From Cladosporium halotolerans (lineage: Eukaryota), in the NCBI RefSeq assembly GCF_011745625.1, contig NW_027191507.1:1-64000 (forward strand): a DNA stretch of 64,000 bases. The letters run 5' to 3'. The number at the start of each line of letters is the position of its first letter. Within the stretch, counting starts at the first letter, position 1. A program made the translations under genes and the position numbers. Of the stretch, positions 8,917-60,324 are shown piece after piece. The notes under the pieces were generated by a model. The model had not been told where the DNA came from, did not search any database, and saw nothing but the letters and a program-made list of their open reading frames with translations.

Positions 8917-9370
8917 ATGAGTTGCCTTTCGAAGAGCTATTACCCCCGAGGCACACGAGGGAAACAAGACATCCTCACCTTGCGATTGCGCATTGCCGCC
9001 ACGTTTGACACATTGTTCTATCTCTGCTTCAAAGGTCTCGATCGACTAGTCAGGATTGTAGTTCGAGGCATGCGCCATCTTCGGCCTCGGGAGGTCCCAA
9101 CACACGTGCTGTAGTACAGTCACCACCTTCGTGCTGGGCATCACTGCCCCCAGCTTCAAGTATGACCACCTGTAGATAGCTGCCCTGGAATCTTCCAGTA
9201 GACACACAATGACACAACCCTTGATTGCAGTTTCCTTCCACATCCGTTCCACATCCATCATGGTGCAAAACACATCACCCACCTCAGCCAGAAGATAATC
9301 CCCGCCGAGCACCCGCCGAGCACACTACTTTGCCCGGGGACATCGTTGAACGGCGCCCACGCCAACACAA

Positions 9371-9560
9371 ATCCTCTACGACCTCAACATTGAGTAGTTC
9401 CTCGCTCCCCTTGGCATGGCCGGCCTGACGGCCCACTTCTCTTTCTACGACATCGGTTCTCCGAAGAAGGCCGAGACCATCTGCAGCTCCTCAGCCATCG
9501 GTAACGTCGGCCTCTTCGAGGGCAGGAACTTCGAGAAGGCTGTTCTAGCGCATCCAGTGT
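9371..9560 (+). pseudogene. Remnant of an NADP-dependent alkenal/prostaglandin reductase (MDR family) with an internal deletion
   Basis: *FLAPLGMAGLTAHFSFYDIGSPKKAETICSSSAIGNVG matches the family's LGMPGLTA...GETIFVSxAAGAVG. It is joined directly to LFEGRNFEKAVL, which resembles the family C-terminus (GxNFGKAV). An in-frame TAG lies upstream and a poly(A) run at about 9562-9586 follows. Confidence 0.7.
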
Positions 9561-9866
9561 CAAAAAAAAAAAAAAAAAAAAGAAAAAGCCCCATTCTGGG
9601 GCTAGACATGGTCAAATGATCTGTTCTAGAATTTTCCAACTTTCATTTGGCGCCGGCAGACATCCTCGCCACCGGTGTGCTTAAATACCCTTGCCCTCGC
9701 CCGTGGCCTAGCTCTCATTGCCCCCACGCCCACTGCTTCATGCCTTTCAAATCGCAACGGCCTCACACTTTCCACTCGCCCATTGCCATCGTCGATACCG
9801 TACTTGCTACTCGCCAACACGACCTACTTTCGATCTCTATTCGATCTCCAGCAAGGCTCGAGAAAT

Positions 9867-26739: not shown

Positions 26740-26757
26740 TTAGGGTTAGGGTTGGGG
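26740..26757 (+). repeat. Interstitial telomere-like repeat TTAGGG TTAGGG TTGGGG
   Basis: Read directly. Confidence 0.7.
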
Positions 26758-36399: not shown

Positions 36400-36920
36400 C
36401 GCCCATTCGACTGTGCGAAAAATGCTAAAGTTCGGTGAGAAACGCCACTGAGGAGCTTTACGCTTCGCTCTGGAGATAGAGATTTGGCCGCTGGACAAGA
36501 GTTTTCGTTGCACCGTATGTTCTTGTACATAGATGTTCGGATAAGCAATTCCAAGAATGAGCCACGATATTCCCTCAGTACCTCCGGGCGGAAGATCTAG
36601 CCTGGTCTTGTGTGGTGTGTACTGGACGCTTCTACCGAGACGGCGCGGTTGTCAACACCACACGGCATCTGTCAAGCTGCAGTTCCCAAGCGAGGCTGAC
36701 CTCGTCTAGGGGATCAGACGAGCCATAGATCCCAACAAGCAGGTAGCGCGAAACCCATTCTCAACCAGTATGCCCCCCCGCGTGACATAAAAGCAGGCGA
36801 CAGGCCCTGCCGCGGCGAGCTCGGGCGGGCCTGTGACGACCGGGTATTAAAAGCGTCTCTGCAGACAGGACGCTCGTCGCCGTCGTACAGCGCATTTCAA
36901 ATATACACAACACCGCAGAA

Positions 36921-39900
36921 ATGCCATCGGTGGTCGAACTATTTACTGCGGAAGAGCGAGCATCACTGCACCAAGTGTACGAAGCCGTGAGGGGCAAATT
37001 ACAGCAAAGCACGTTATCCTACATTCAGAACGAAACGATCCTCAAAAGCGACAAACTTTTTGCTTTCGTCGAAGCTTTAGCCACAGTCTTACAAACCAAC
37101 GGTCTCTCCGAGAAGAGCGCGAAATGGAATCGTCTTAAAGAGCTCGTCAAGGGGGCAAGCAACGACAGCAAGGACACGGATGAAGAAAAGAAATGGAGGA
37201 CACGCGTCACGCAGGCAACTTTCATCTCGATGCAATGGTCGCTTGAGGTCCTGGAGTACTACGAATGGAGCACGGACAGCTTCAGTAGGGACCGACTGGC
37301 TTTCATGTACAACTGCGCCAAAAAGTATCCTCGCTTTCGGCTTGACTTTGTCCCACACGCAAACCTGGTACGATGGTTGAAACACTGCAACGCTTTGTCT
37401 TCCCTGGACAAAGCGACAGAGGACCTCTTTGCCGGGTACGGTGGAGAATTCATGGTCAAAGATCTCAAGAGTCTCCAGAAGCTCCAGGAATCGAAGCACA
37501 CCCCGGTCTACGGTCAGAACGTCACGCTCAAGTCTGCAGGAGAATTTGAGAAGTTCATCGACAGATGGACGCAACACCGCACCGGAATCGTCGTCGTTGG
37601 TGGGAAGACTTTGGATCTGAAGAAGCATAGGCCGCAACACTGGAACACATTCCTGCTCAAAAAAGATAAGAACGGTCTTCTGGTGCGGCGGACAGGCACC
37701 GACGTGGTAGAGACGCCCCGGCATACTGGCTTCCTGTCGCCTCCAACTTCCACCTCCGTCACAGCAGGCGGTGCGACGACACTGCAACCCTGCATTGATG
37801 CGTATTCGCTGCACTTGTTGCATAGCAGCGAGCAGAGCACCTCAAGTGATGACGTGCCCGCCTCAAGTCCGCCGCTCATCGATGACGAGACCGGAACTGC
37901 CCAGCATGTTGAAGAGCTCAGAAGCAATCCTGATTCTCGCAGCGTTGGAGATGCTGAGCCTCGACCTCCTCAGAGCCACAGCTCCGTGGACTCGCCGCTC
38001 GCTCTGCCATACGCGCGACAAAGTGATCTCGGGTCTGGGAACGAGAGTCCTTCTGTACGGCGCACTGCTGGTCTCAACCGGGAGAAGGCAGCACAGGCGC
38101 ACTCAGTCAACGAAGAGATTGACAAGTGCAGTGAAGGATTCAGCAGCAAAGCTTCAACCGACTCGAAACGAACCGAGCGACTCGTGCAGAACAGGCGCGC
38201 GGAAAACGGGGATGATGGGGACCTGTCTTCAGTGCGCGGATCGATGGAGCTGCGGTCTAGGCGTGAGACCAGTCCGGGCGACAATCCGTCGGGTGGAGGC
38301 GATATCACCAAGCAAAAGTGTATCTCCGTGCCCGTCGCAAGTCATGTGGCACCTTCAAGCGAGCCAAATAGCAGTAGTGCCCCGTCACAGGGACGCGAAA
38401 GTCCCTTGCATAATGGACACTGTGATAAAGAGCCAAGCAGCTATTCACTGGAGCATCATGAACTTCTGGGTGATCTAACGCGGACTCATCAAGCTGGCGC
38501 AGCGACGGCCGGCGAAGTGAGCCTACGTCACATCGAGAAATGGTTGAGCGACCAACGCAAGGGCAATTTGTCAACTGCAGATTCTCCGTCTGAGACTGGG
38601 TCGAGTCAACGGGATGTAAGCACCGCTTGCGAGAGGATCAGAATTGCAACACACGAGAGGCAGATGTCCGGGTCGTCTCAGAAGGAAGCAATTCCCCAGG
38701 GATCTTCGAACGGGGCGGGTACGATGCAATCTCTCGCCACCGAATCCAGTGCTTCGAAATCATCTGCAAGTGGCCTTTTCCAGCCACTGTCATCCGCCGA
38801 ATCCGGACTGCCGGCCGGAGCTTCCCAATGGCAGCACAAGCTTTGGCCAAACGGGGACGAGGACTCGTCTACTGTGAAAGATTCGAACACCAGCGGCTCT
38901 CCGAGCCCTTCTCCAAGCTTGGAATCATCCACACGGTTCACGCACCAGCGACTCGTCGCGTGGGCACCTGCCGTCCTGAAGGCACCCTTTGAGCATAGTA
39001 CGGCAAGCAGTGAGGTAAGTTCGCCTGAGGACTCCGCTTCGGACAGCCACAGCTTTGGAACGACATGCTCAGGTAAAAGCGTGGGAGGGGGTTCGAGCTT
39101 GCCTCTAGTACACACAACCCAGGGGCATCGACCAATTGCGGATTCTTCCGCAACACTCGAGGCGGTCGCTGTGATGCAGCCGTATGCAGCCCTTCCGGGC
39201 TCGGTGACGCCATTCTCCGGTTTTGCTTCGTACAATCCACGTTCTGCCAATGGAACGGTCTACCCGGGACGGCTTGACGAGAGTGAGGTATCAGTAAGCA
39301 ATCGAGTGCACGAGGTTGAGAGCTCTACGGACGAGAGCGCTGCGGATGAGAGCGCTGCGGATGAGAGCTCTGCCGACGAGTGCTCTGCCGACGAGAGCTC
39401 TACGGACGACGGCCAGGGAACGTCTTCGGACTGCTCCGAGGATCTCCACCACCTCCATCTTGATAATCTGCCGGTCGTCTGTCAATGCAAAGTCTGCATT
39501 GCGCTCGTGCCGCTGCTCAGAAAAGTCGGGCTCGAAGCTTCCTTGCATGGCGCGTCCGAATTATGCCGTGCGCGAGATTGCTGGTTCGGTGAGGCGAGGT
39601 GGGCCTCTTTCAAAGCAGCATACGAGAGAGACGACCTTGGCGATGAGGCCGAGGCCGAGGCGGAGGTGTTGCATGTCGACTCCACTGGTCTCGAAAGCCT
39701 GGCCGACAGAGGCGTCTTGATCGAGAAACCGATTGTCATCACAGAGCGCAAGATCAATCTACCGACGTACCATGTGGAGTCGTTGCGGAAGGCGATGCGC
39801 GACAATTTTGGGGACCAGACCGTGGCAACGACCCACACCCTCACGCAGGAAGCAGAGCACACTGGTATCACAGACTTCTTCGCAGACATTTCGAGCGGTG

Positions 39901-40745
39901 AATCGCCAGTCAGCTCTTCTACCTTGTGCGACTCCCTCGGAGCACCTCGACCGACCTTTCTGTCCCTTGACCGCTTTCGGTTGCTTCACGCCGCGATCAC
40001 GAGGGGCGTCTCCCAAATTGTCGAAACAGAAGTTGGCGGCTCGGACAGGGGTTGCGCGACTGGCGCCCACTCTTTGTGTGTGAGCGGCGGCCTATCGTTT
40101 AACCGCATCGATGGCTCCGGCGCTTTTGTCGGGCCCTGCATAGATCCTTTGGGTGGCACTTGGATTCGCAATCTGATGGGAAGGAGACTGTGCGCCTTCG
40201 TGCCTCGCGCGAAAATGACGACGTCGCTGTACGGGGACTTCGCAAGCGACAGAGTGGGTTGGCAGCCACGCGGAGAACAAAGGCTGGTACTGCTCGAGCC
40301 TCACGACGTCCTCGTCCTGCCGCCCGGCGTTGTCCACGCACAGCTCGCCGTCGATGCGTCCGCATCGGTGGAGGGATCATTCTGGGACGAGCGGGAAGCA
40401 GGACGCTACTCGACAGCCGCGCAGTGGGCCGCCACAAACCTCACTCACCCGACGCAGATTCCGAGGTGCGCGGTCAGGCTTGCGTTGCAGGGTCTGAAAA
40501 GCATCGTGCAGGGTGACCCGACACGTTTCGATTCGGACCCGTTCATTCGAGAGTTCCTGGGGGACGAACGCTCGGCGGTCTTCGAGGCCGTGATGGCTCA
40601 GACCTGCGGCACAGACGAAAAGCGGATCGAGAGCAACCCCGAGGGCTTCGGAACTTCCGAGGGAAACAGTGATCGTCGAATATCGATGCATGAGGGAGAA
40701 AATGACGCTACGCCACCACCGCCGAAACGTATGTGCCTTCGATGA
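36921..40745 (+). CDS. 1274-aa protein with a long Ser-rich linker and a C-terminal JmjC/cupin-like domain
   Basis: Single long ORF. The C-terminal GAFVGPCIDPLGGTW...G-RR..LVLLEPHDVLVLPPGVVHAQ...SVEGSFW fits the JmjC double-stranded beta-helix pattern. Confidence 0.75.
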   Translation: MPSVVELFTAEERASLHQVYEAVRGKLQQSTLSYIQNETILKSDKLFAFVEALATVLQTNGLSEKSAKWNRLKELVKGASNDSKDTDEEKKWRTRVTQATFISMQWSLEVLEYYEWSTDSFSRDRLAFMYNCAKKYPRFRLDFVPHANLVRWLKHCNALSSLDKATEDLFAGYGGEFMVKDLKSLQKLQESKHTPVYGQNVTLKSAGEFEKFIDRWTQHRTGIVVVGGKTLDLKKHRPQHWNTFLLKKDKNGLLVRRTGTDVVETPRHTGFLSPPTSTSVTAGGATTLQPCIDAYSLHLLHSSEQSTSSDDVPASSPPLIDDETGTAQHVEELRSNPDSRSVGDAEPRPPQSHSSVDSPLALPYARQSDLGSGNESPSVRRTAGLNREKAAQAHSVNEEIDKCSEGFSSKASTDSKRTERLVQNRRAENGDDGDLSSVRGSMELRSRRETSPGDNPSGGGDITKQKCISVPVASHVAPSSEPNSSSAPSQGRESPLHNGHCDKEPSSYSLEHHELLGDLTRTHQAGAATAGEVSLRHIEKWLSDQRKGNLSTADSPSETGSSQRDVSTACERIRIATHERQMSGSSQKEAIPQGSSNGAGTMQSLATESSASKSSASGLFQPLSSAESGLPAGASQWQHKLWPNGDEDSSTVKDSNTSGSPSPSPSLESSTRFTHQRLVAWAPAVLKAPFEHSTASSEVSSPEDSASDSHSFGTTCSGKSVGGGSSLPLVHTTQGHRPIADSSATLEAVAVMQPYAALPGSVTPFSGFASYNPRSANGTVYPGRLDESEVSVSNRVHEVESSTDESAADESAADESSADECSADESSTDDGQGTSSDCSEDLHHLHLDNLPVVCQCKVCIALVPLLRKVGLEASLHGASELCRARDCWFGEARWASFKAAYERDDLGDEAEAEAEVLHVDSTGLESLADRGVLIEKPIVITERKINLPTYHVESLRKAMRDNFGDQTVATTHTLTQEAEHTGITDFFADISSGESPVSSSTLCDSLGAPRPTFLSLDRFRLLHAAITRGVSQIVETEVGGSDRGCATGAHSLCVSGGLSFNRIDGSGAFVGPCIDPLGGTWIRNLMGRRLCAFVPRAKMTTSLYGDFASDRVGWQPRGEQRLVLLEPHDVLVLPPGVVHAQLAVDASASVEGSFWDEREAGRYSTAAQWAATNLTHPTQIPRCAVRLALQGLKSIVQGDPTRFDSDPFIREFLGDERSAVFEAVMAQTCGTDEKRIESNPEGFGTSEGNSDRRISMHEGENDATPPPPKRMCLR
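39318..39407 (+). repeat. Coding minisatellite, 6 x 15 bp (ESSTD/ESAAD/ESSAD)
   Basis: gagagctctacggac gagagcgctgcggat gagagcgctgcggat gagagctctgccgac gagtgctctgccgac gagagctctacggac. Confidence 0.9.
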
Positions 40746-46950: not shown

Positions 46951-48764
46951 TGGAGGGATCCTTCCACAGGCTTTGGCGATTGACGAAACGTATCAATGGA
47001 CACTCAAATCCAGAACGAACACCGGCCGACTGCGCCATTGCAAGTATTGCAAGCTCACCATGGTGGCACTTGACGCCATGTCACTCACTTGCCATCACCA
47101 CTCCGCGACGGCCGCCCATTCACGATCCACCATGATAGACTGGCCCACTCGGCAATGTCTCCAAGGCCTTTGCTCAATTGCTCGCAGTTCGATATCTCAG
47201 CGTGCACTTGATGAGGCTAATGTTTACAACGATGTTACATTTGATTGTTCCTCGACCGGACAGAACTGCTGTCTGAATGCTGCACGACTTTTACCCGTCG
47301 CACGCCCATGGCAACAGTGACATCTGCCTCGAAAGGCAGCCCTGTGACCGAATCATTTTTCGTCGCGTCGACCAAAACATTCTGTTCAAACTGATGATTC
47401 CGAAAACTGCCTCCGGGATCATGTTCGAACAAGCGATTGGGGTGTCTGGCGGTGGCCACATGGACGCCCAATTTCCGAGGGCATGGGGTCCTCGCCATGC
47501 AATGATGAACTTTAATGTGTGAGAGCGGAACAACCACATTAGCCTAGCACAGGGTCAGTGACGGTCCGCGCAGGAAACAGCAACGTAGTTAGACGCTAAC
47601 CATATCCAGACCGTAAACTCTCCGACATGTTCATGTTGCCAGAGCAAAGCCACGTAAGACCATCCGACCACAACTTCAGATGCAAGCCATAACCAACTGG
47701 CATCGATCTGAGCGTCGATGTCAAGGAAGTAGTGGCAGAGTAACAGGGAAAAAGTGGAGAATAGGGACAAATCGCGCGCACACCGGAGCTGGGAGAGTGT
47801 CAGGATCAGAGAAGGATAAAATCATCTTGATCACGAGAGGACTTGCGAACTTACAGCGTCAATACTGCGTTTTCAGTGGAGGGCATGGTGCGCCAAGGTG
47901 TTGGGGGGTTCCAGTTGTCTGTTTGGGTGAGTGAGAGCGGGAGGCAGGAAGGGGGGGACGAGGGGTTGTCCTGGAAGATGCGAAAGGATGGAGGGATGAA
48001 GGGGGCTGATGGCGAGCTTTTGCACCACAGCATGCCGTTCAAATGCGCTATTCCAGGAAAAGATGACGGATCCGATTCTTCCGTTGTGTCCATGAATCAC
48101 GCAATCACAGCAACCCACATGTGCACGCCCCGGAAGCCGTAAGACACGACGACCATGTATCGAGTCGCTGTGTTCACCGTCGTGGGTAGTAGACTCGTCA
48201 GTATTGAGATTTCCATATCCGACATGATCCTGTCCGTCACTGTGAGTATGAGAGAGCGTGGACGAAGAGGTAATATGGCCGTCGACCGGTTCGGATCACT
48301 TACCAACCAGAAATTAGGTGTACTTGGCCACCGCATCTTGCAAAAAATTGTGTCTTGAACCAGCGAAAAAGGGTTTTGGTTGACAAGACTGAGATGCAGG
48401 GATGTAGTGTTCCTGAATATCTAAAGTCGTCACCATGACAACCATTGAACACAACACTTGTACCGCGAACTATCCGCTCGTTAGTTGGCTGCGGTGGGAA
48501 TTCAAGGCGGGGGATTCGAGTCATCGGACTACAAAATAGGATGATGGAACGGGTGCTAATGATCGATTGCCAGAGACACTGCACTTCACCGAAGCTTGCA
48601 ATGGCAAGGTCCTTGACGCACGGCATGCAGATCGAGGCGCAGATGCCTGTGGCGATCTCGAAAAGGGGACAGAGGCCGATGTCCAACGAACACGTACGAA
48701 TCCACAAAAGCGAGGCCTATCCGCCGAGTCGTCAGCGAAACATGGTGTGGGATTCGACTCCTGC

Positions 48765-49568
48765 CTACCGGATCGCACCGTCCGACGTGGTGGCAGCGTC
48801 CACCGTGCAGGGTCCCGGTAATAGCAGCATGCGTCCTTCTTCGCTCGCTTTGCAGCATCGAGACTCTGTCAAGCTCCAGAACCGTTTCTGCTCACCACCC
48901 ACTGTCTCTGCCCACTGCTCTAGAATCTGTTGATTTTGCGGGCTGATGTCTTCCTTCGACTGCTCCGGTTGCCGCACACTCTCGTCGTGATAATCGACCA
49001 CGAAATACCGTCGATGCGCTTTCGATTGAAAAATCGTCTGTACGTATACGGCGTGCCAGTGTTCCGGGTCATCGGCAATAGATTTCCATGCATGTTCCTT
49101 GTAGCAATGTTTTCTGATCTCATCTCGACTCATTGAGATCTTAGTACATCCGGATTCGTCGCATTGAAATCCTCGCATCGGCGACCCGAGCCAGTCGAGC
49201 GGTGCTTGTAGTGACGGCGGTGTTGTGACTTGTGCCGGCTCTAGCAACTCGCAAGCTCCGTATTTCTTCTCTATTGCCGACCTCTCGGAGCTTCGGACTT
49301 TATGTTGTAGCCTTAGATGTGTTGCCAGATTCCGGACGGCATACCCGTGATAACGGCAGACTAGCACTTTATAGTGAGAGTCGTAGTAGAGCCATTCATC
49401 AGCGTTTGCGGCAGCGATCTCTAAGCCGTCTTCCAAGCCAATCGCGCTATCGGATGCGGTTGTGCTATGCTCCGTGCACGAGTTGCTTTGTGCTAGACTC
49501 CACGACCGTTGTCGAACGGGCGTCGACGTTTGCGTGCCCCAGCTCGCAAGTGAGCTGTCATCGCTCAT
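48765..49568 (-). CDS. DUF3505 (OrsD-like) zinc-finger protein related to the N-terminus of the adjacent helicase; probably truncated near 48910
   Basis: YKVLVCRYHGYAV...THLRLQH...GFQC...C...IRKHCYKEHAW...VQTIF...RYFVV parallels HRILICTSCQYAI...THLKEYH...GLRC...C...MRKHCKEKHGW...CQRFF...KYFEV in the helicase. Confidence 0.7.
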   Translation of the reverse strand: MSDDSSLASWGTQTSTPVRQRSWSLAQSNSCTEHSTTASDSAIGLEDGLEIAAANADEWLYYDSHYKVLVCRYHGYAVRNLATHLRLQHKVRSSERSAIEKKYGACELLEPAQVTTPPSLQAPLDWLGSPMRGFQCDESGCTKISMSRDEIRKHCYKEHAWKSIADDPEHWHAVYVQTIFQSKAHRRYFVVDYHDESVRQPEQSKEDISPQNQQILEQWAETVGGEQKRFWSLTESRCCKASEEGRMLLLPGPCTVDAATTSDGAIR

Positions 49569-50241
49569 TTTGTGCTGTTGTTGTTATTTTGTAGAAGCCG
49601 TTTTCAGCTTGTCAAATCGCCGCTTCGCTATAGCACTATATGTTGTACGAAATGAATATGCATCAAGTGTCTAATGTGGGCGCCTGAGCAGATGTGAATG
49701 TCTCACGCGTGAAGACGCGAGCGGTCGTGCTGCGCGGTCGTGCTGCGCCAGTCGCACTGACCCTGAATTCCACGCCCTCCCAATCTTCCATGCTTGTACT
49801 GTCAGCAATGTATCGTTCACTACACGACGGTCAACGCTCCTAAAATCAGTTAAAGTTGCTCGCAGACAGAACACGACACGGAGAAAATTATAGTGCTAGT
49901 TTGAGCGTTATGCGATCGATTTTGCTTGAAGGCACATTTTGCTATGTACGAACGCCAAAACAATGCTTTTGCGCCGACCTTCGCGCTCAAAATATGGTGC
50001 CGCACTCGGTTCCCTGCTTCGTTAGCGCCCATACTTTATAGATGATCTACAGAGCATCGTAGCAATACTTAGTCTCCATGACTTTGCTATAATTTCATTC
50101 ATGATGAAAAGACAACAACTTGGGGATCACTTCTTGGGGAAGACTACAAAATGATTGTAAGCGGAAGTTCAGTAGCTACTTACGGTTAGCGCCGCTTTGG
50201 GGTAAGCTGGGGATCAGTGTTCCCCTCCGCTGCTTTTTGGT

Positions 50242-50301
50242 TAGGATTGAGGATAGGATTGAGGATAGGATTGAGGATAGGATTGAGGATAGGATTGAGG
50301 A
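50242..50301 (+). repeat. Tandem repeat 5 x TAGGATTGAGGA, flanked by GGTTAGG on both sides
   Basis: Read directly; lies about 80 bp downstream of the helicase stop codon. Confidence 0.92.
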
Positions 50302-50381
50302 TAGGTTAGGCTATACTTGTTTCTAACCTTCTACATTTTCTTTCCTATTGAAGAAGAGGGATAAGGTACACTCTACTACCC

Positions 50382-53300
50382 TTATATTGATCGTAGGGCT
50401 AAACCTGCCACTCGCACTGCCTGAATTGCACTCCCCCCTCCGAATCTACTCTCCTCTCCTAACCAGTCAAAATAATCCTCGATATTCTCAAACTTTCGCT
50501 CGAATTGCTCGTGTAGCCATCCTGGCCCCTCAACACTCTCGAATACCCCGAAGCAGAGCGGGAGTACGATGTCTCGGTGTTCACAATCCATGCCACCTCC
50601 ACCTCCTAGCTCTGCTTGTTGACAGATCGATTGCGGATTCAGGCACCAGAAGCAGCTCGTGTATGCCTGTAGCCATTTCCGCCCTCGTCCTTCGTGTCGT
50701 CGTCTGGCTTCGTTCCTGTGTTCAAACACCTCGAATCGCCGTGGGCACGTTGAGAAAGCATGGTCCCAGTTCTGTCTGACTACCCTGCAGAGCAAGCATG
50801 TTCCTTTCACGCTCGCCAGGTCGAGCCGATACTGTGAGAGTTCTGTGTGAGCCCGTAGCCGCTCTTGCTGGATGAGCCCGAGCCCTGTGTGTGGCGTGTC
50901 CTCTTGGACGCTCTCGACCGGGTTGATGGGATCCTGGTGGGCCACCTTGCAGATGTCACACGGTATATCTTCTGGCATACACCATCTTCGATGTCGGGAG
51001 ATATCCAGGTAATCGCTTAACGAGGTCCGGTAGCATTGCTCGCTCTGCAGGTATCGGTGCACCGCCTGTTTGTCCTGGCGCTTTCGAAGCGATACGTCCT
51101 GTCTGTGGTTGCTCGCGTTCTGTAAATCCAGTGGATCGTCATCCATAGCCTTGGGCTGCCAGGTCGCTGGGAGCAACACCATCGAGTACGCACGCTTTCC
51201 GTCTCGCCCTGCTCGACCTGACTCTTGGGCGAAGATGACTAGGGATTCCGGCTCGTCTACATTCATGACGAGTCGGACGTGAGGGTAGTCGAACCCTTCA
51301 GCGAGAGCGGTGGTGGCGACGATATAAGGCGTGCCTGAAGTCTCAATCCATCCATCGAGTATCTCTTTCTTCTCTGCCGGTGTCCCACTCTCTGCCGTGT
51401 ACGCATTGCAGCCGAGTAGCTCTGCCAGATCGTCTGCATCTTTGCACGTCCGAACGTACAGAACGATCTTGTCACAGGCGTGGTCGAAGAACCCCGATTC
51501 TGTCCACGCATCTTTTGCCTCGATTGCAGCCTGTTTGAGAAGGCTTCCGTTGTGGGCGTCGATTTTTCGCACCATGTAGAAAATGTTCAGTCGATTACTA
51601 GGCGCCCTGACAACAGTAGGACGGTGCAGATAGTTTCTCTCCTCGAACTCTGCTCGCATGGATGGCGGAAGAGTGGCTGTCAAATAGACAAACTGAGTTC
51701 TCAAGCTCCGGATGGTTGTTAGCTCGACCATACTTGGTCGATACTCAGCCGCTGTTACAGTCAGATGGCACTCGTCAATCACGATCCGATCGAGCTTTTG
51801 CTCTGCTATTAGCCTCCGAGCATACTTGATGAAATCCTTGGACGAGGCGGCCTCAGCGCTGATGAGTACTAGGGCGGCCTCCCGGCTCTCGCCTGGACGC
51901 CACTCTAGATGGTCGATGCTCATCTCTTTTATACGCCGGATCATATCTCCATAGAGCGAGACGAGCGGTACTACGAGTACTGTTATTCCAGCGTCAGGCA
52001 GAGTACACGGAAGCATAAAGAGCAAGCTCTTCCCGGCTCCTGTGGGAAGGATGGCGACAACCTGCTCGGTCCAAGACATGATTGTGGTGAGAGCTTGCTC
52101 CTGCTCGGCAGATTTCCAGCCTGCTTCCCTGTTGCCGTATAGCTTCTTCACTCCTCCTAGGAGAGCTTCGGTGGACCAAGGTTTCCGAGGACGGTAGATG
52201 CCCATAGCCACCCGTTTCGCCAATCGAGACTCTTGCTCGGCTCTCCCACGTTTCTTTTGCTTGAGCATCATGTCTAACCCCCAGAAGTCCTGCCACAGCG
52301 TCGAAGCCTGTAACCCCATCCGGACTTTTCCATCCCACAAGTTGGCAAATACTGCTCCGGCCTGGTTGGCGTACGCCCGGTTCACCGTCCGCGTCTTGTG
52401 GTTGCGCTGTTCCGTCATGCTTCGGATTGTCGGGTCGATCTCTTCCGCATCTTCGTCGCCTTCGTCAGGGTCGAAACATTCGATCTGGCTGGCGAATTTG
52501 GTCTTGACGATGGCCACTGTGATCTGCCTCCAGTTAGCGACGCGAAGCCGTGGCACGCATGCCCGAACACATGCTTCTTCCAGGTAGCGGCTTAGATGAC
52601 CCTCCGGCCACACTTTTCCATTCTTCTCCCAAAGGTACGGAGAGAGCAACGATCCAGGCGATGTCTGTCGGAAGAATCTCTCCCGTAGTGGCAATACGTA
52701 GACGATGTAATCGAGCAGTAGCTCTGCGATCGGATTAGCGAGGAACCGGACGTTCTCTTTGTAGTCACTCGTTTGTTGCTGGCCCTTATGGTACTGGATG
52801 TGTACCATTATACGGTCGAAGCGAATGACGATGGATCGTCGCCGCTGCGCGTTGCGATATGTCATCGAGAAGAATTCGCTCTCTCGCACAGGCTGTCCCC
52901 CGCTGATGTGTACGAGAACGCTCAATCGCTTCAGAAACTCTTGCACGGTGGCTTTGTAACCAGCCATTGCGCTCTCCCTCCATGCCCATCCGCTGGGTGA
53001 TCGATTGTCTTCGGTAAGGAAGATGCGAGACAGTTGATCCGATCGTTCGATTGCGTTCGTCAGTGCTCTCCCTGTACCGCCGAGGGTCGTTGCGTTATCT
53101 CTGTGCTGAGTAAAACTCCAACCGACGGTCTCGACGTTGACACCATCTTTGAGGAACCGAGGGCTTATTCGGCGGAGACTCTTGAGACCCAGCATCAAGT
53201 CGTCGTAAAGAAGCTGATAACACCCCTGGTACTCAGATGCAAGCAAAGATGGGATCTGATCCATCCGTAGTTCGGTGTCCTCGTATGTCAGCACCTCACT

Positions 53301-54848
53301 TTCGTCCCAAGACGCTTCATGGGTGCCAACGCTCGCACCCGACACCTTGAACAGCAACAGGCGCCATCTGAGGATCTCTCCCATCGGTGTCTCTACGGTC
53401 TGCTGGAGGTACTGGTCGCAGTAAGATCTCACAAGCTCTAGCGTCTTCCCACAGCCTTGTTGTTCCTTCAAGGCGCTATCGTAGAACACTAGCAACTGTA
53501 CGACCCAGATAATGGCCGAGAGACTGCTATTAAAGTTTCCGGGTTCCATCCAGCCGTTTGTCGATGGTTTGATGCTCAGCATGGCGCAGAAGCTCAACAG
53601 AGATGATCCATACCGCCGAGCGCCAGTCGTGTGGCAGATGAGAAGCGTCCTTGGCTCCAGAAGTCGTCTCTTCAATTCCTTTTCCTCTTTATCACCTTCC
53701 TCGTTGTCCTCTTCGACAGGGCTCGCTCGTCTTCGCTGTGCGATCTGGCAGATATCTTGCCATACCGCCAATTGCTCCTCTGTCGCCTCGATGGTGTCTT
53801 CCGGCCTCTGCATGTCGTCGTCATCTTCAGCTATTGCGCTAAAATGGTACTCGTCAGGAGCGACAACTCTGCTGAAGTATGACACGAACCGAAGCGCTAT
53901 TCCGAAATAGCTCACAAGACTCTTCGGCCCTTTGTGTGGATCGAATGGTCTGGTCTTGCCTGTCAGATCGACTTGCGAGGGCTGGAAGCGGCTGAGGACG
54001 ACTCGGCATTGATAAGTCAGCATGCAGTCAGGTCCGTCAAAGCATAGCCTGTGGGCATCCTGTAGTAATGATTGCATCGCATCGATGATGGTACGGAGAT
54101 TGCTCTCCTCTCCTGACGGGGGCACAGCGATTGCTGTTCGAATTTGGTCTTTTCTGAGACCGCATATATGGTCGGCAATGCCTGTCTCTCTTAGCCAAGG
54201 GACTACGGCGGAGACATGGTCGTCAAACCCATGTACTCGGTTCGCATCGTCAGCAGCATCGCGCTGTGCTTGTTGGACGTCGTCTTCTTGGGCGCGGAAA
54301 AACTCATGCTTCTGGGACGTTTGCCTCTCGGTGATTGCACCCTCATCCTGACTTGCCACTTCGAAGTATTTCTGCCAACTGTTGACCTTAAAGAATCGCT
54401 GACACGCACGGTTTTGAGTCCAGATCTTGTTACGCGCATGGAGCTGTTTCGTGCGAACATCCCCTCCCCGCTTTTGCTGATTCGCCCATCCATGTTTCTC
54501 CTTGCAATGTTTCCGCATCAAACGTAAGTTGCGACACACATAGACGCAGGCAATATTCCTGTTATCCGCCCAATCACATCTGAGCCCGTCAAAATAAACT
54601 GGGAGGATCGGAACGGGAGGATCGTTTGGAGTTGGATATACGACGTCTTCATGGACACTCGCCAGAGCGGAGCAACTATCGACCTTGGCAACGAAGGCGT
54701 GACGTCGTTCAAGAGTAAGACGACGGTGGTACTCTTTGAGATGGGTCGTTAAGTGCGATGGCACAATCGCGTATTGACAACTTGTGCATATCAAGATCCT
54801 GTGTTTGTTGTTTATTTCGAAAAGACGGGTGAAATCCACTTCTGCCAT
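50382..54848 (-). CDS. Telomere-linked helicase (TLH)-type protein: DUF3505 zinc fingers, putative tyrosine-recombinase domain, RecQ-type SF2 helicase, Cys-rich C-terminus
   Basis: Intronless 1488-aa ORF with helicase motifs LPTGAGKS, VVPLVSL, IVIDECH, LTAT, IVLYVR, VATTALAEGFD, QESGRAGRDG and the RecQ Zn cluster CYR...C...CDIC. Confidence 0.93.
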   Translation of the reverse strand: MAEVDFTRLFEINNKHRILICTSCQYAIVPSHLTTHLKEYHRRLTLERRHAFVAKVDSCSALASVHEDVVYPTPNDPPVPILPVYFDGLRCDWADNRNIACVYVCRNLRLMRKHCKEKHGWANQQKRGGDVRTKQLHARNKIWTQNRACQRFFKVNSWQKYFEVASQDEGAITERQTSQKHEFFRAQEDDVQQAQRDAADDANRVHGFDDHVSAVVPWLRETGIADHICGLRKDQIRTAIAVPPSGEESNLRTIIDAMQSLLQDAHRLCFDGPDCMLTYQCRVVLSRFQPSQVDLTGKTRPFDPHKGPKSLVSYFGIALRFVSYFSRVVAPDEYHFSAIAEDDDDMQRPEDTIEATEEQLAVWQDICQIAQRRRASPVEEDNEEGDKEEKELKRRLLEPRTLLICHTTGARRYGSSLLSFCAMLSIKPSTNGWMEPGNFNSSLSAIIWVVQLLVFYDSALKEQQGCGKTLELVRSYCDQYLQQTVETPMGEILRWRLLLFKVSGASVGTHEASWDESEVLTYEDTELRMDQIPSLLASEYQGCYQLLYDDLMLGLKSLRRISPRFLKDGVNVETVGWSFTQHRDNATTLGGTGRALTNAIERSDQLSRIFLTEDNRSPSGWAWRESAMAGYKATVQEFLKRLSVLVHISGGQPVRESEFFSMTYRNAQRRRSIVIRFDRIMVHIQYHKGQQQTSDYKENVRFLANPIAELLLDYIVYVLPLRERFFRQTSPGSLLSPYLWEKNGKVWPEGHLSRYLEEACVRACVPRLRVANWRQITVAIVKTKFASQIECFDPDEGDEDAEEIDPTIRSMTEQRNHKTRTVNRAYANQAGAVFANLWDGKVRMGLQASTLWQDFWGLDMMLKQKKRGRAEQESRLAKRVAMGIYRPRKPWSTEALLGGVKKLYGNREAGWKSAEQEQALTTIMSWTEQVVAILPTGAGKSLLFMLPCTLPDAGITVLVVPLVSLYGDMIRRIKEMSIDHLEWRPGESREAALVLISAEAASSKDFIKYARRLIAEQKLDRIVIDECHLTVTAAEYRPSMVELTTIRSLRTQFVYLTATLPPSMRAEFEERNYLHRPTVVRAPSNRLNIFYMVRKIDAHNGSLLKQAAIEAKDAWTESGFFDHACDKIVLYVRTCKDADDLAELLGCNAYTAESGTPAEKKEILDGWIETSGTPYIVATTALAEGFDYPHVRLVMNVDEPESLVIFAQESGRAGRDGKRAYSMVLLPATWQPKAMDDDPLDLQNASNHRQDVSLRKRQDKQAVHRYLQSEQCYRTSLSDYLDISRHRRWCMPEDIPCDICKVAHQDPINPVESVQEDTPHTGLGLIQQERLRAHTELSQYRLDLASVKGTCLLCRVVRQNWDHAFSTCPRRFEVFEHRNEARRRHEGRGRKWLQAYTSCFWCLNPQSICQQAELGGGGGMDCEHRDIVLPLCFGVFESVEGPGWLHEQFERKFENIEDYFDWLGEESRFGGGSAIQAVRVAGLALRSI

Positions 54849-55337
54849 GGTTGATCGAGCAAGTAAGACTTACGACTGCCATTTTTCAGAAACGATAGGA
54901 GCCCTCGTATATCAATAATTTTGTTGCTCCCTGGCAACCTGCCTCCTGTGACTAAAATGCATGTGCCTATGCGTAGACGTGCTTTCATGCCGCAAGAAGA
55001 CGCTCACTCATTCGCAGGTGCTAACGCCAGCTGCGGGGCAGACTTCCAATTTTGTCGCTGGCTGCGTTTTTGGCGTACATATCACCGTCATATTGTCGCA
55101 CCATTCCTGCAAATAAACAAACGAAACGCAGCGAGCAAAAAGAATCATGCTGTCGTATCTTGTTGTTTCAATTTTGGCCAATTACGAGGTTATTAAAGCA
55201 AAGGTCCCGGGTCAGGCAAAGCAAAGGTTTCGGCTTAGCCTTACTTACCCTAACCCTTAATTTATTAGGCATTTCAAAGGTCTCGACTCGAAACCTTTGT
55301 CTTCTAGTGTTAGGGATCTAGGAATTAAGTATTATCC

Positions 55338-55523
55338 CGGCGATCTCGGCGACCTCGACGTAATGAATAGATGTCAGAACACTAGTCGCCTACGCTATCC
55401 TATTAGTAACCGCATATGCTGGACTGGCAGCTGCGGTATTCGCCGATGTACCATTCGCCGGTCACCTGGTCGCCGATGATTTGATCGCCGATTGCCATCT
55501 TTATCCCACTCACAGCTCGCCGA
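55338..55523. promoter_or_regulatory. Array of seven CGGCGA/TCGCCG motifs upstream of the persulfide dioxygenase gene
   Basis: CGGCGA at 55338 and 55347; TCGCCG at 55440, 55455, 55470, 55485 (exact 15-bp period) and 55517. Confidence 0.6.
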
Positions 55524-55635
55524 CGGAGTCGGTAATAAGCCATTGGAAAGGGAACTTCAGTGACCAAAGCTCTCTGGATTTCCCAGCCCGCTTCTACTCG
55601 CACGAAATCCACACTGGACAGCAGCCATATTTAAC

Positions 55636-56865
55636 ATGGTCAAAGCCCCCATCCTCCACTTACCTCGAAGCCCCCACATCTATCACATCCCGCTTAAAAT
55701 CTTGCCGATATTCAATACCAGTCGCCGACCTAGTGCGTACGTCTTTGCGGAAAGGATCAGTCCTTCATTCACGCCTCGGACTCTTCATTTACAGAGTTAC
55801 CAGAGGCAGATTGATCAACAACAACCAAAGTCCACGTTCTTACCAAGACGGCCAATCCCAAGACGGGCGCTACATCACACACCCAACAGCGTACATACCG
55901 AAGTCATGTCCCAAACAGTCACCGTCGACAGCATGCATGATTCAGCCACTGGTACGTGGCAATACATTGTCGCCGATCCGCACACCCTTGACGCCGTCAT
56001 CATCGACCCAGTCTTAGATTACGACATTTCAACACATACCATCAGCACCCACACCGCCGATGGCCTCAAGTCTTTGATTGAAGACAAGGGTTACAAAATC
56101 ATCAGGATCCTCGAGACACATGCGCACGCAGACCATCTGACAGCCGCCTCATACTTGCAAACCGTCCTAGAGCGGGACCATGGTTCTAAGCCGCCTATCT
56201 GCATTGGAAAGCGGATCCGTGAGGTGCAGCGCGTGTTCGGACAGAGATACGGTGTTTACGACTCCGAGCTGAATGCGGCGTTCGATCAGCTCATGGATGA
56301 CGATGAGGAGTTTTGTATTGGCCAGCTAAAAGCCAAAACAATTCATCTTCCGGGCCACACACCAGATCACGTCGGTTACCTCGTCGAAGGTAAGCAATGT
56401 CAGCAGCAAAACAAACGACTTTGGAATTTGCTAATACAAGGCCTCGCAGACAACATCTTTTGCGGCGATTCGGTGTTCAACGCCGACCTAGGCACCGCGC
56501 GCTGCGACTTTCCCGGCGGCAGTGCAAAAGATTTATACCACTCGACTCGCAAGTTGCTGAGCCTGCCCGACAACTACAAGATTTGGACCGGCCATGACTA
56601 CCCGTCTAACGGCCGGATGTGTCCAGTCCCGTACATGAGCGTGGCTGACCAGAAGCAGCGCAATCGCTACCTTTCAGACATTGTATCGGAGCAGGATTTT
56701 CTGCACATGCGCACCCAACGTGATGCACAACTGAAGGAGCCGAAAATGCTACACCCGTCGTTGCAAATCAATATTCGCGGAGGACGGCTACCCGCTCCGA
56801 TGCCATCTGGTGAACGAACCTTAACATTTCCTATTCGACTGGAGACCGAGCACTGGGGAGTTTGA
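55636..56865 (+). CDS. Metallo-beta-lactamase-fold persulfide dioxygenase (ETHE1/Blh-like); in-frame intron 56390-56449
   Basis: TWQYIVAD, IIDPVLD, LETHAHADHLTAA, HLPGHTPDH, IFCGDSVF, GTARCDFPGG, IWTGHDY, LQINIRGG. The R/S-rich N-terminal extension may be a mitochondrial presequence (alternative ATG at 55906). Confidence 0.9.
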   Translation: MVKAPILHLPRSPHIYHIPLKILPIFNTSRRPSAYVFAERISPSFTPRTLHLQSYQRQIDQQQPKSTFLPRRPIPRRALHHTPNSVHTEVMSQTVTVDSMHDSATGTWQYIVADPHTLDAVIIDPVLDYDISTHTISTHTADGLKSLIEDKGYKIIRILETHAHADHLTAASYLQTVLERDHGSKPPICIGKRIREVQRVFGQRYGVYDSELNAAFDQLMDDDEEFCIGQLKAKTIHLPGHTPDHVGYLVEGKQCQQQNKRLWNLLIQGLADNIFCGDSVFNADLGTARCDFPGGSAKDLYHSTRKLLSLPDNYKIWTGHDYPSNGRMCPVPYMSVADQKQRNRYLSDIVSEQDFLHMRTQRDAQLKEPKMLHPSLQINIRGGRLPAPMPSGERTLTFPIRLETEHWGV

Positions 56866-58491: not shown

Positions 58492-60324
58492 CTAGAGTAT
58501 GTTGTTTGAAAAAAAATTACTTGACATTTCATCTGTCAAAAAAAGATCGAACCAAAATGGGTTATTGCCCATGCTGTCGCTGTCGGCCATGGCACTGTCT
58601 CGGAAAGAAGTAGCGTGAGGCGACAAGGCATGCGTCGAGAAAATGGTCTCGGCAACGACTTTGAGACAACGCGCTGAATTTTGAGCGAGCGTGTATCGCT
58701 CACCTAGCCTTTGCAGTGCACCGAGCATCAGAACGACTCTGTCTCTATGCTGTTGGAGGCAGTCTAGCCCGCCACGGGGTACATGGATGGATCCTGCCGC
58801 GAGTTGAATAACGCATCCTAACACCAGGCCACAAATGAAAAAGGGCGAATTTCTGTCTAAACGCCATGGCACAGTAGCGAGGTTCGCCAAATCCTTTGAA
58901 GCGGCGATAGCTTTGACAGTGTGGTGTCTGGAAGTAGGCGCCAATTGTATATAGCCGTTCGCACAGGCGATGTCTTTTGCAGACGGCACCGTGTCGGGCA
59001 GGTCGCTCCTGGGGAAATGAAGGAAGATGGTAGCGCACGCAATGATGCAGCGTGCTTCGAAAAGCATCAAATCGACATCTCCCGAAGGACCAACGACGTC
59101 TCTATATAAGAACGGGAGATTGTAATCCCAACCTGCAAGCGCGTTATTTAGTGCCTGGATGTTGTCAGGAAGAGCATCGTCCTGGGAAGCAATAGTCAGA
59201 ACTCGGCTGACAAGCGGATCGCATCTATGCGAAAGCACAAAGTTGAGAAGCTGGCTTGCGGCTCCGGTGAAAAAACTCGATTCTCAAACGCTCGGAGTAT
59301 AGGAGGGCTTGGATCACATTCACCTGCTTCATAGGGCCTGGGCACATGGTAGAAAGGGGAGCGTCTTTGCGCAGGCGGTTTGGAAAATCGGACGGCGGTG
59401 TATCGCCGCGAAATAGATGTCGACGGTGTACAGCTCCCACCATGTCCTTCGGAGACTCTCTTCCACCAAAGAGGAACAAGCTGAATTTTCTCGCGCGAAG
59501 GTCGGCTCCTGCATGCCCAAATCCAACACGATGCTGGCAGCACGAGTGACACACGCGGCGGCCTCTGTGGGCTGCTGACGGGCGTGAAAAATGATAGCGT
59601 ACAAAACCAGTGCTTGGACCCTAGAGGGCTTCTGCTCGTGAGGCTCCAACATGGCAGAAGAAACTGCCTCTTGGAGCCCTAAGTCTCCAGGCATGGACGT
59701 CGCATAGTGCTGTCCAGCGAAGCATACGACCAGATCGAGGTAGTGCGGATACTGTTGCGCCGCGTAAAAAGGCCTAGGCACAAGGAAGGGATGTGCGGCA
59801 AAGAAATGGATATAGAAGAGGTTGAGCGGGCGGTCGTGGTCGGAAGGATTGAGTGCCCACGTCGACGGCACGGCGGGAGTTAAGGATGGCAAAGGCAGTT
59901 GTGGATTGCTGAGGCATCCTGGGACAGTGGATGTTGACGAACAAGAAGCGGCAAGGGCCGGACAGGCGGCGAGGGCGGTATGGGAGGTGTTGCTGCTGGC
60001 GGACCGTGCAGATGCGGCTGTGGGCGGCGTCGGTGGCGCGGTGGTGTCTGCAGCGGGACCAGCTCCTGCCGCAGCAGGCAAAGGTCGGTGATTGCGAGGT
60101 CGATGTGGAGAAGCATTTGCATGTGCCGGATCGCCTCGCCTGCCGCGGCGGCCAAGTCCACGGCGGGAAGCGGTGTAAGAGCAGGCAACAGCGTCGACAA
60201 GGCAGCGGCCACAGGTGGGCGACGCGCCGTCGCACTTGAGATGTTTGCGTCGACACCCATCACACGCCAGCGGCGCCGGGCGAGCGGTGGCGTCAGAGTT
60301 GGCAGCGGCGGTGGCGGTGGCCAT
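58492..60324 (-). CDS. Zn(II)2Cys6 transcription factor with a fungal middle-homology region; apparent frameshifts near 59331 and 59210
   Basis: ACDGCRRKHLKCDGASPTCGRC....AC, FYIHFFAAHPFLVP, EESLRRTWWELYTVD, LPFLP, FLHFPRS, SPFFICG. Confidence 0.88.

Follow-up and report, generated by a model that had tools for sequence, protein, structure and literature searches.

A predicted tyrosine-recombinase fold in the TLH domain of a multi-copy fungal RecQ helicase gene

TLH genes ('telomere-linked helicases') have been known for about 25 years, from fission yeast, the rice blast fungus, smuts, Fusarium and a choanoflagellate, and to our knowledge it has not been explained to date what they do, or why they lie where they do and in so many copies. 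The member of this family considered here lies at 50382..54848, on the minus strand, of a 64,000-nucleotide stretch of Cladosporium halotolerans DNA (assembly GCF_011745625.1, contig NW_027191507.1, positions 1 to 64,000); this whole stretch is called the window below. Structural modelling assigns the block just upstream of the helicase securely to the fold of tyrosine recombinases and type IB topoisomerases. It is rather probable, in our judgement, that the block is an active recombinase-type module that works with the helicase on DNA.

The closest described relatives are other TLH genes (Magnaporthe TLH1, S. pombe Tlh1 and Tlh2, Ustilago UTASa, the Fusarium TLHs and the Monosiga TLH), which by their descriptions, in the accessible parts of two papers, share one architecture and are multi-copy (10.1101/2024.02.27.582403; PMC1635262). 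Relatives are reported there beside telomeres in several fungi. In the accessible text of the first of these papers, a study of Fusarium, TLH genes are said to encode C2H2 motifs, RecQ motifs and a 'TLH domain' of about 250 residues just upstream of the helicase; the function of this domain is given as unknown, and Rehmeyer et al. (2009), who named it, are credited for it (10.1101/2024.02.27.582403). A second system of interest is ResT, the recombinase-like telomere resolvase of Borrelia. According to the accessible part of its description, this protein carries out ATP-dependent 3'-5' unwinding as well as annealing, activities that have been likened to those of RecQ; cleavage-rejoining and RecQ-like 3'-5' unwinding are united in one protein (PMC5388405).

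The initial annotation of the window proposed that a tyrosine-recombinase-like domain is hidden in this gene and knew of no earlier mention of the domain. It already bears a name, in the accessible part of the Fusarium study, but no link between the TLH domain and tyrosine recombinases was found in the searchable literature (most subscription journals and the database annotations lie outside it). The word 'recombinase' does not occur in the Magnaporthe chromosome-end paper. Within the limits of the searchable literature, the recognition of the TLH domain as recombinase-like is new, in a gene family that is already named.

The gene and the domains of its product, P0001, are as follows:

50382..54848, minus strand: intact, intronless open reading frame (ORF) of P0001, 1488 amino acids, a single open frame of 1488 codons
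54489..54824, minus strand: OrsD/DUF3505 C2H2-type zinc-finger domain, residues 9-120 (Pfam PF12013, E 3.4e-25)
52272..53321, minus strand: region with the tyrosine-recombinase/topoisomerase-IB fold, residues ~510-859 (a conserved block of about 350 residues), corresponding to the 'TLH domain' of the literature (AlphaFold2 model and fold matches)
50943..52154, minus strand: core of a RecQ-family superfamily 2 (SF2) helicase, residues ~899-1302 (Pfam DEAD and Helicase_C, PDB matches)

From its amino terminus, P0001 thus consists of the OrsD zinc fingers, a conserved block with the recombinase-like domain, the RecQ helicase and a cysteine-rich tail. Pfam places DEAD at residues 915-1063 and Helicase_C at residues 1125-1217, and finds no significant match over residues 120-915. 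RecQ-family proteins account for 37 of the 40 PDB sequence matches of the helicase (E<=1e-5), the best being RECQL5 (E 1.7e-29), followed by BLM, E. coli RecQ, RECQ1 and WRN, and on this evidence the helicase is assigned to the RecQ family. Homologues named 'tlh1' and 'telomere-associated recQ-like helicase' are among the matches listed. By these names and by its architecture (C2H2 fingers, TLH domain, RecQ helicase), P0001 is classed as a member of the TLH family.

The fold of the block upstream of the helicase was predicted with AlphaFold2 (AF2), without templates, for residues 480-880 and from 87 diverse sequences. The resulting model has a predicted local distance difference test score (pLDDT) of 88.7 and a predicted template-modelling score (pTM) of 0.88; it replaced a first model from 13 sequences (pLDDT 62.5) that gave no significant Foldseek match (XerA at rank 1, E 0.33). 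In a Foldseek search of the PDB, Xer recombinases fill all of rows 1-10 (XerH at E 0.017, probability 0.98), and the rows after them hold ResT (catalytic domain at rank 12), the variola and human topoisomerases I, Cre, Flp and lambda Int. VIA-align, which is independent of Foldseek, was run against 48,161 PDB representatives. All 28 chains at Z>=5 are tyrosine recombinases, type IB topoisomerases, Ndc10 or recombinase-like phage regulators, and the first unrelated row stands at Z 4.8. The best match is XerA 4a8e (Z 11.2, root-mean-square deviation (rmsd) 2.9 A over 168 residues), and the next are XerA 5hxy (Z 10.0), XerH (9.7), and XerD and Cre (8.9). Type IB topoisomerases are matched at Z 7.5 (bacterial and Leishmania) and Z 7.0 (variola), the Ndc10 structures at Z 5.8-6.3 and TelA at Z 4.3; the matches cover model residues 31-380. 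Best Z-values of 7-8 are common with this method for models that have no true match, but the top value here is higher and the superfamily alone stands above the background. The nearest three named clusters in the ESM Atlas are PF00589 and the fourth is NDC10_II (score 0.84, to be taken as a lead only). The model therefore places the block securely in the tyrosine-recombinase/type IB topoisomerase fold, as the initial annotation had led one to expect.

The candidate active-site residues are listed next. The counts refer to an alignment of 121 sequences and, after the semicolon, to the non-gap cells among 290 domain matches from 269 proteins; the XerD residues are those paired by the profile alignment described below.

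52884..52886, minus strand: codon of R655, the box I arginine, in GGQPVRESEF; conserved (121/121; 236/243), paired with XerD R148
52785..52787, minus strand: codon of K688, candidate beta-hairpin lysine, in YHKGQQQ; conserved (120/121; 248/257), directly following model strand 200-207
52527..52529, minus strand: codon of R774, the second arginine, with A-N-W-R-Q replacing H-x-x-R-H; conserved (121/121; 247/250), paired with XerD R247
52398..52400, minus strand: codon of H817; conserved (119/121; 230/239), paired with XerD H270
52371..52373, minus strand: codon of Y826, the candidate nucleophile; conserved (117/121; 230/234), paired with XerD Y279

All five residues, their contexts and their spacings (R655-R774, 119; R655-K688, 33; H817-Y826, 9) are as initially annotated, and so are the reference spacings in known recombinases. 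In the Cre sequence R173 and R292 are 119 apart and W315 and Y324 are 9 apart, while in lambda Int and XerD the two arginines are 99 apart and the histidine and tyrosine 9 (the letters and motifs at these positions of the sequences agree with that numbering). The R-R spacing of 119 is accordingly matched by Cre alone, and the H/W-Y spacing of 9 is common to Cre, lambda Int and XerD. In the AF2 model, K688 lies at the start of a hairpin, directly after strand 200-207. The catalytic lysine of Cre occupies the corresponding position.

All five are near-invariant, and the free variation that the initial annotation had named as a refuting outcome is not seen. A word-indexed search with residues 400-880 found 178 homologues, the best 120 of which were examined; among the matches listed, the named ones come mostly from Dothideomycetes (Cladosporium, Hortaea, Friedmanniomyces) with a few from Leotiomycetes, and many lie on contigs of 5-6 kb only. 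When a domain profile of 13 sequences was run against 1.84 billion cluster representatives, at least 3198 proteins reached E<=1e-3, of which 1517 reached E<=1e-10. The R-K-R-H-Y set is kept in 96-99% of the non-gap cells of the 290 domain matches. An alignment of 148 sequences has a mean column identity of only 13%, and a conservation of 90% or more is reached in just 16 of its 401 columns; each of the five residues falls in one of those 16, for which the chance, given five positions named beforehand, is of the order of 1e-7 by rough arithmetic. All five are likewise among the 15 near-invariant columns of the 87-sequence alignment. The first histidine of HxxR is replaced in P0001 by alanine (A771, opposite XerD H244), again as annotated, and most of the 290 domain matches have Ala (107 rows), Ser (86) or Gln (28) at this position; the histidine is present in divergent members, as HAYRH in P0243 and as HSYRH in a paralogue at metagenome locus L002. 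Codon comparison with three metagenome copies shows that the ratio of nonsynonymous to synonymous divergence (dN/dS) is lowest over residues 621-860, at 0.033-0.040, against 0.064-0.077 for the helicase and 0.077-0.093 for the whole protein, values that are rough because dS is saturated. The recombinase-like domain is under strong purifying selection.

The register of these residues was also recovered by profile comparison. A family profile of 209 sequences was aligned by hhalign with a recombinase profile of 15 sequences, namely 13 PF00589 loci of E. coli K-12 with Cre and lambda Int, which were used because a search seeded with E. coli XerD gave 88-99% identical sequences only. The match is weak, with P 0.003-0.004 and a length of 128-170 columns; in controls with reversed sequences, P was 0.14-0.17 and the length 15 columns. 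The alignment pairs GGQPVRESEF with ATGLRVSEL of XerD (R655 with R148), ANWRQ with HVLRH (A771 with H244 and R774 with R247), and QRNHKTRTVNRAY with LLGHSDLSTTQIY (H817 with H270 and Y826 with Y279). A second word-indexed search, with the domain profile, returned close family members only and no stand-alone annotated recombinase. Three HipA-like PDB rows at E 1.1 in a profile search were set aside as chance matches. The proposal of a recombinase-like domain in a TLH helicase is thus well supported by fold, conservation and register.

Comparison with the known enzymes brings out likenesses and differences. Xer-type recombinases, Cre, lambda Int and the integron integrase share the fold of the catalytic domain (Z 8.1-11.2, rmsd 2.9-4.2 A over 150-173 residues), and R, R, H and Y of XerD stand in register with the TLH domain. 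The TLH domain differs from them in that there is no detectable similarity at the level of hidden Markov models (HMMs) and in that the first histidine is usually A, S or Q; moreover, it shares a protein of 1488 amino acids with zinc fingers and a RecQ helicase, and it has no partner recombinase or known site. Ndc10 and the DUF3504 proteins are eukaryotic and have the same fold, but the catalytic residues are conserved in the TLH domain, which argues for retained chemistry.

The initial annotation described the gene as telomere-linked, and for this copy the description is not supported. The family trait of adjoining telomere repeats is absent here: there is no telomere array within the 64-kb window, and TTAGGG-like repeats amount to about three, at 26740-26757. 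A 21-kb contig from sequencing run X1 extends at least 15 kb past window position 60000. The gene lies at least 21 kb from a contig end on its 5' side, with 50 kb of window on the other side, and this copy is interstitial, not at a telomere. Its upstream neighbours (to the right in the window) are ordinary-looking and comprise a gene with a metallo-beta-lactamase fold, a Zn2Cys6 factor and a sulphur transporter. The repeats at 26740-26757 form a lone interstitial TTAGGGTTAGGGTTGGGG, and shuffles of the window contained no comparable match. Elsewhere in the window, a stop-free frame of 1302 codons at 36837-40745 (plus strand) has no Pfam match at E<=0.001.

The gene belongs to a repeated unit. 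Ten metagenome loci encode relatives of P0001. In run X1, probably the source sample, the flanks have a summed contig depth of about 28, the gene one of 59-269 and the stretch 49008-49508 one of up to 2495; the values for run X5 are 100-150 for the gene and 2.5-27 for the flanks. The depth falls between bins 55020-55520 and 55521-56021. There are several related copies per genome, summed depth not being a copy number. The 5' boundary of the unit is at about 55317, where the contig of locus L004 begins, and the contig of L005 is similar from its base 18. The elements near the two ends of the unit, and the array repeat in the different copies, are:

55191..55317, minus strand: array of cis elements at the 5' end of a single-gene unit of about 5.1 kb; recurs in other copies
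55275..55299, no strand assigned: CAAAGGTTTCGAGTCGAGACCTTTG, a nearly perfect palindrome of 25 bp that may be a core-type recombination site or may bind a dimer; pattern matched in 0/100 shuffles of the window
50227..50317, no strand assigned: six tandem copies of the 12-nt unit GGATAGGATTGA with flanking GGTTAGG motifs, 65 nt 3' of the stop codon
Array repeat in the window and L004: ..ACCTTTG
Array repeat in L005: ..AAGTGTTCG
Array repeat in L003 and L007: ACCATGATTCCTTT

Read on the gene strand, the 5' array consists of a boundary motif ATCCCTAAC, then TAGAAGAC, the palindrome (site I), the telomere-like TTAAGGGTTAGGG and two more direct copies of CGAnACCTTTG, with start-to-start spacings between the sites of 53 and 23 nt. 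In loci L004, L005 and L007, too, TAGAAGAC is present, the first site is a palindrome, there is a motif like TAAGGGTTA, and the distances between the sites are 53-54 and 23-24 nt; L003 has the last two sites, and its contig starts too late for the first. Among the arrays of the window and these four loci, the spacing has been kept while the repeat sequence has changed between lineages. In L005 both arms of the palindrome are altered together and it is still palindromic. The OrsD domain is the part of P0001 that differs most between copies, with a dN of 0.17 against L004 and of 0.38-0.40 against L003 and L005, and the window and L004, which have the same repeat sequence, also have the closest zinc-finger domains. 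Such co-variation would be expected if the fingers read the repeats, but with three comparisons only it is anecdotal.

At the 3' end, the copies agree for about 135 nt past the stop codon and then diverge, and the 12-nt tandem repeat of the window stands in place of the AT-rich 3' tail of the other copies. Rfam has no match over 48000-56000. One contig of run X5 follows the 12-nt repeat as far as 50310 and then passes straight to 58618, with 9 additional letters at the join; it was not counted as an empty site, its short side being less than 62 nt and lying in a microsatellite. The contig represents a close relative (99.2% identical over 58618-59758), in which, if the join is real, 8.3 kb is absent or rearranged. 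The 8.3 kb between 50310 and 58618 holds gene A (the gene of P0001), the metallo-beta-lactamase-fold gene and two further ORFs. In L004 (1-3432), the 5' array (1-130) sits 3.5 kb upstream of the gene, and two versions of a 118-nt piece of leader, at 232-349 and 3304-3421 and 76% identical to each other, enclose some 3 kb of other DNA with tandem repeats of its own (1202-1547), which is possibly a nested insertion.

How might such a protein act on such a unit? Because the nucleophile tyrosine and its partner residues are near-invariant, the TLH domain likely retains cleavage chemistry. From the recombinase fold and the conserved set we infer a cut-and-rejoin role, and therefore a three-part DNA machine, in which the OrsD zinc fingers would recognize a DNA sequence, the recombinase-type module would cut and rejoin DNA (with attack by Y826 giving a 3'-phosphotyrosine link), and the RecQ helicase would unwind, branch-migrate or resolve the resulting joint. 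The place of action may be the site I palindrome in the unit's own 5' array; the two direct repeats around the telomere-like TAAGGGTTA could then be accessory binding sites, and the palindrome and the repeats would be comparable to the core and the arm sites of an attP. In this way the enzyme might copy or move the ~5.1-kb unit, with telomere-like repeats as preferred partners, and the telomere-like sequence in the array would let the unit recombine with chromosome ends. If the mechanism holds, relatives would pile up at chromosome ends because telomere-like repeats are the preferred partners.

Mobility of the TLH unit is plausible. A more far-reaching proposal is that TLH units are an unrecognized class of autonomous eukaryotic DNA elements, whose one protein would join a tyrosine recombinase and a RecQ helicase to a zinc-finger head that recognizes the site. 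The 5' array, with its palindromic core, its telomere-like TAAGGGTTA motif and two arm-type repeats, would be attP-like and recombine with telomere repeats. This proposal is tentative and, on balance, we doubt it; if it is true, the fungal and choanoflagellate 'telomere-linked helicases' would be telomere-targeting mobile elements and not host genes. The initial annotation had gone as far as to call the gene the mobility gene of an element. The multiple copies and the structured 5' end agree with that claim, but its other expectations, namely an empty site, a circular junction and a defined 3' end, were not found.

Among known mobile elements, Cryptons resemble the TLH unit in being compact (a few kb), in having a single large ORF and in lacking terminal inverted repeats, and a recombinase and not a DDE transposase is the presumed mover. 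They differ, by their descriptions, in lacking a helicase (PMC3212892, PMC13465315). The main text of the 2011 Crypton survey makes no mention of helicase, RecQ or TLH (PMC3212892), and the 2026 paper on fungal Cryptons none of helicase, telomere, RecQ, OrsD or DUF3505 (PMC13465315); 'Crypton-H' turned up in the literature as a repeat-class label only. As to Crypton-type ends, the TLH unit has a defined 5' boundary and a rough 3' boundary. Starship captains (DUF3435) are also fungal, have the tyrosine-recombinase fold and are tied to mobile DNA, but the TLH unit is of about 5 kb with one gene and is not a cargo-carrying giant. Neither P0001 nor any of 25 family members has a Pfam match to DUF3435 or Phage_integrase, which agrees with the earlier view that the domain is separate from the captains; judged by sequence, the TLH domain is distinct both from these and from the classical integrases. 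The telomere resolvases ResT, TelA and TelK have a recombinase-like fold, and like TLH genes they are linked to chromosome ends and to a palindrome as the candidate site, but their fold scores are weaker than those of Xer proteins, and no hairpin-forming activity is implied for the TLH domain. Fungal telomeres are open TTAGGG arrays, not hairpins.

A number of points weigh against an active recombinase or against a mobile unit. Searches of the PDB with the domain (phmmer and two profile searches) gave no relevant match; Pfam Phage_integrase (PF00589) and DUF3435 are not matched by P0001 at E<=1 or by any of the 25 members at E<=10; and hhalign found nothing between the family profile and the single Cre or lambda Int sequences. 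For the match that it did find with the recombinase profile, hhalign's own probability is only 8-10%, and K688 is not cleanly aligned to the lysine of XerD. Every Foldseek E-value is above 0.001, and the model segment with H817 and Y826 is less confident than the rest (pLDDT 55-65). Without the first histidine of HxxR, P0001 has five of the six catalytic positions. The 5' array might just as well serve as a promoter or an autoregulatory element; its repeat motif does not recur at the 3' end, so that there is an array at one end only, and that 3' end is poorly defined. Finally, the four sequencing runs contain no empty site or circular junction for the unit, and no contig that joins across the gene A unit alone.

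Some of the same observations bear on other explanations of the domain. The main one of these, which we rate as fairly unlikely, is that P0001 is a host enzyme of telomeres or subtelomeres, in which the domain serves the RecQ helicase as a type-IB-topoisomerase-like swivel or strand-transferase when chromosome ends are repaired or amplified by recombination, the genes having spread only by ordinary subtelomeric duplication and ectopic recombination. Type IB topoisomerases are indeed among the fold matches (Z 7.0-7.5), but the closest matches are Xer-type recombinases. The names of the relatives (telomere-associated helicases) and their reported positions beside telomeres in several fungi, in the accessible parts of 10.1101/2024.02.27.582403 and PMC1635262, fit a host function, while the P0001 copy is interstitial. 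ResT, as described in the accessible part of PMC5388405, offers a precedent, in that a single polypeptide both cleaves and joins DNA and has RecQ-like unwinding and annealing activities, and the telomere-like motifs within the 5' array and the strong purifying selection are also what a host enzyme might have. The compactness of the unit (~5 kb), with a sharp 5' boundary common to divergent copies, and the many homologues on repeat-like metagenome contigs of 5-6 kb argue the other way.

A domesticated and catalytically dead recombinase fold, retained as a DNA-binding or scaffold module in the manner of Ndc10 or the Crypton-derived DUF3504 proteins, is improbable. Ndc10 is among the fold matches and NDC10_II is the fourth nearest Atlas cluster, the first histidine of HxxR is replaced in most members, and Pfam recognizes no integrase; these are the observations that such a module would account for. 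Dead derivatives such as Ndc10, however, have lost catalytic residues, whereas R-K-R-H-Y, including the nucleophile tyrosine, is kept here at the high frequency given above, all five residues fall within the few near-invariant columns, and within the protein dN/dS is at its lowest in this domain. That the motif arose by chance in an unrelated helical domain we find hardly credible. The HMM searches do not tie the domain to recombinases, as a chance motif would predict, but the fold matches above Z 5 are exclusive to the recombinase/topoisomerase superfamily, an independent profile alignment puts four catalytic residues in the same register, and all five are near-invariant.

Taken as a cut-and-rejoin module, the TLH domain provides a testable idea of what the puzzling multi-copy TLH genes do. 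If the enzyme is active, it would be a natural fusion of a site-specific recombinase/topoisomerase-like module with a RecQ helicase, an architecture undescribed in the searchable literature. It would then bear on how chromosome ends are maintained independently of telomerase, on how plastic the subtelomeres of plant pathogens are, and on which mobile elements are counted among those of eukaryotes.

Downstream of gene A lies a remnant of a second gene of this kind:

48912..49571, minus strand: truncated N-terminal (OrsD) fragment of a divergent paralogue, 'B', with 88% protein identity to gene B of L002

The order A then B is common to the window and metagenome locus L002, and other copies of the B fragment run on past 48911. 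The paralogue at L002:1701-5231, directly downstream of an A-type gene, is 23-29% identical to P0001 and has the canonical HSYRH; it also has in-frame stops and is probably decaying. The segment at 48911-49572 (662 bp, the OrsD fingers of B) reaches a summed depth of 2495 in run X1 compared with about 28 in the unique flanks, and contigs of runs X1 and X2 break away at both 48911 and 49572. These observations suggest that the segment is a repeat module far more abundant than the full genes. Within the A-B intergenic region, 50117-50174 has a contig depth of 2277 in X1 and of 7852 in X2, whose flanks are below 10, and no Rfam match. A further diverged OrsD/B-type fragment lies on the same contig about 1.5-2 kb past the right end of the window (X1 record 3, 9116-9709).

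Two relatives of P0001 from other species deserve mention. P0002 and P0003, recorded from Cladosporium fusiforme and Hortaea werneckii, are 90-91% identical to residues 400-880 of P0001, and these two fungi belong to different orders. Identity this high across such a distance hints at horizontal spread or at very slow change.

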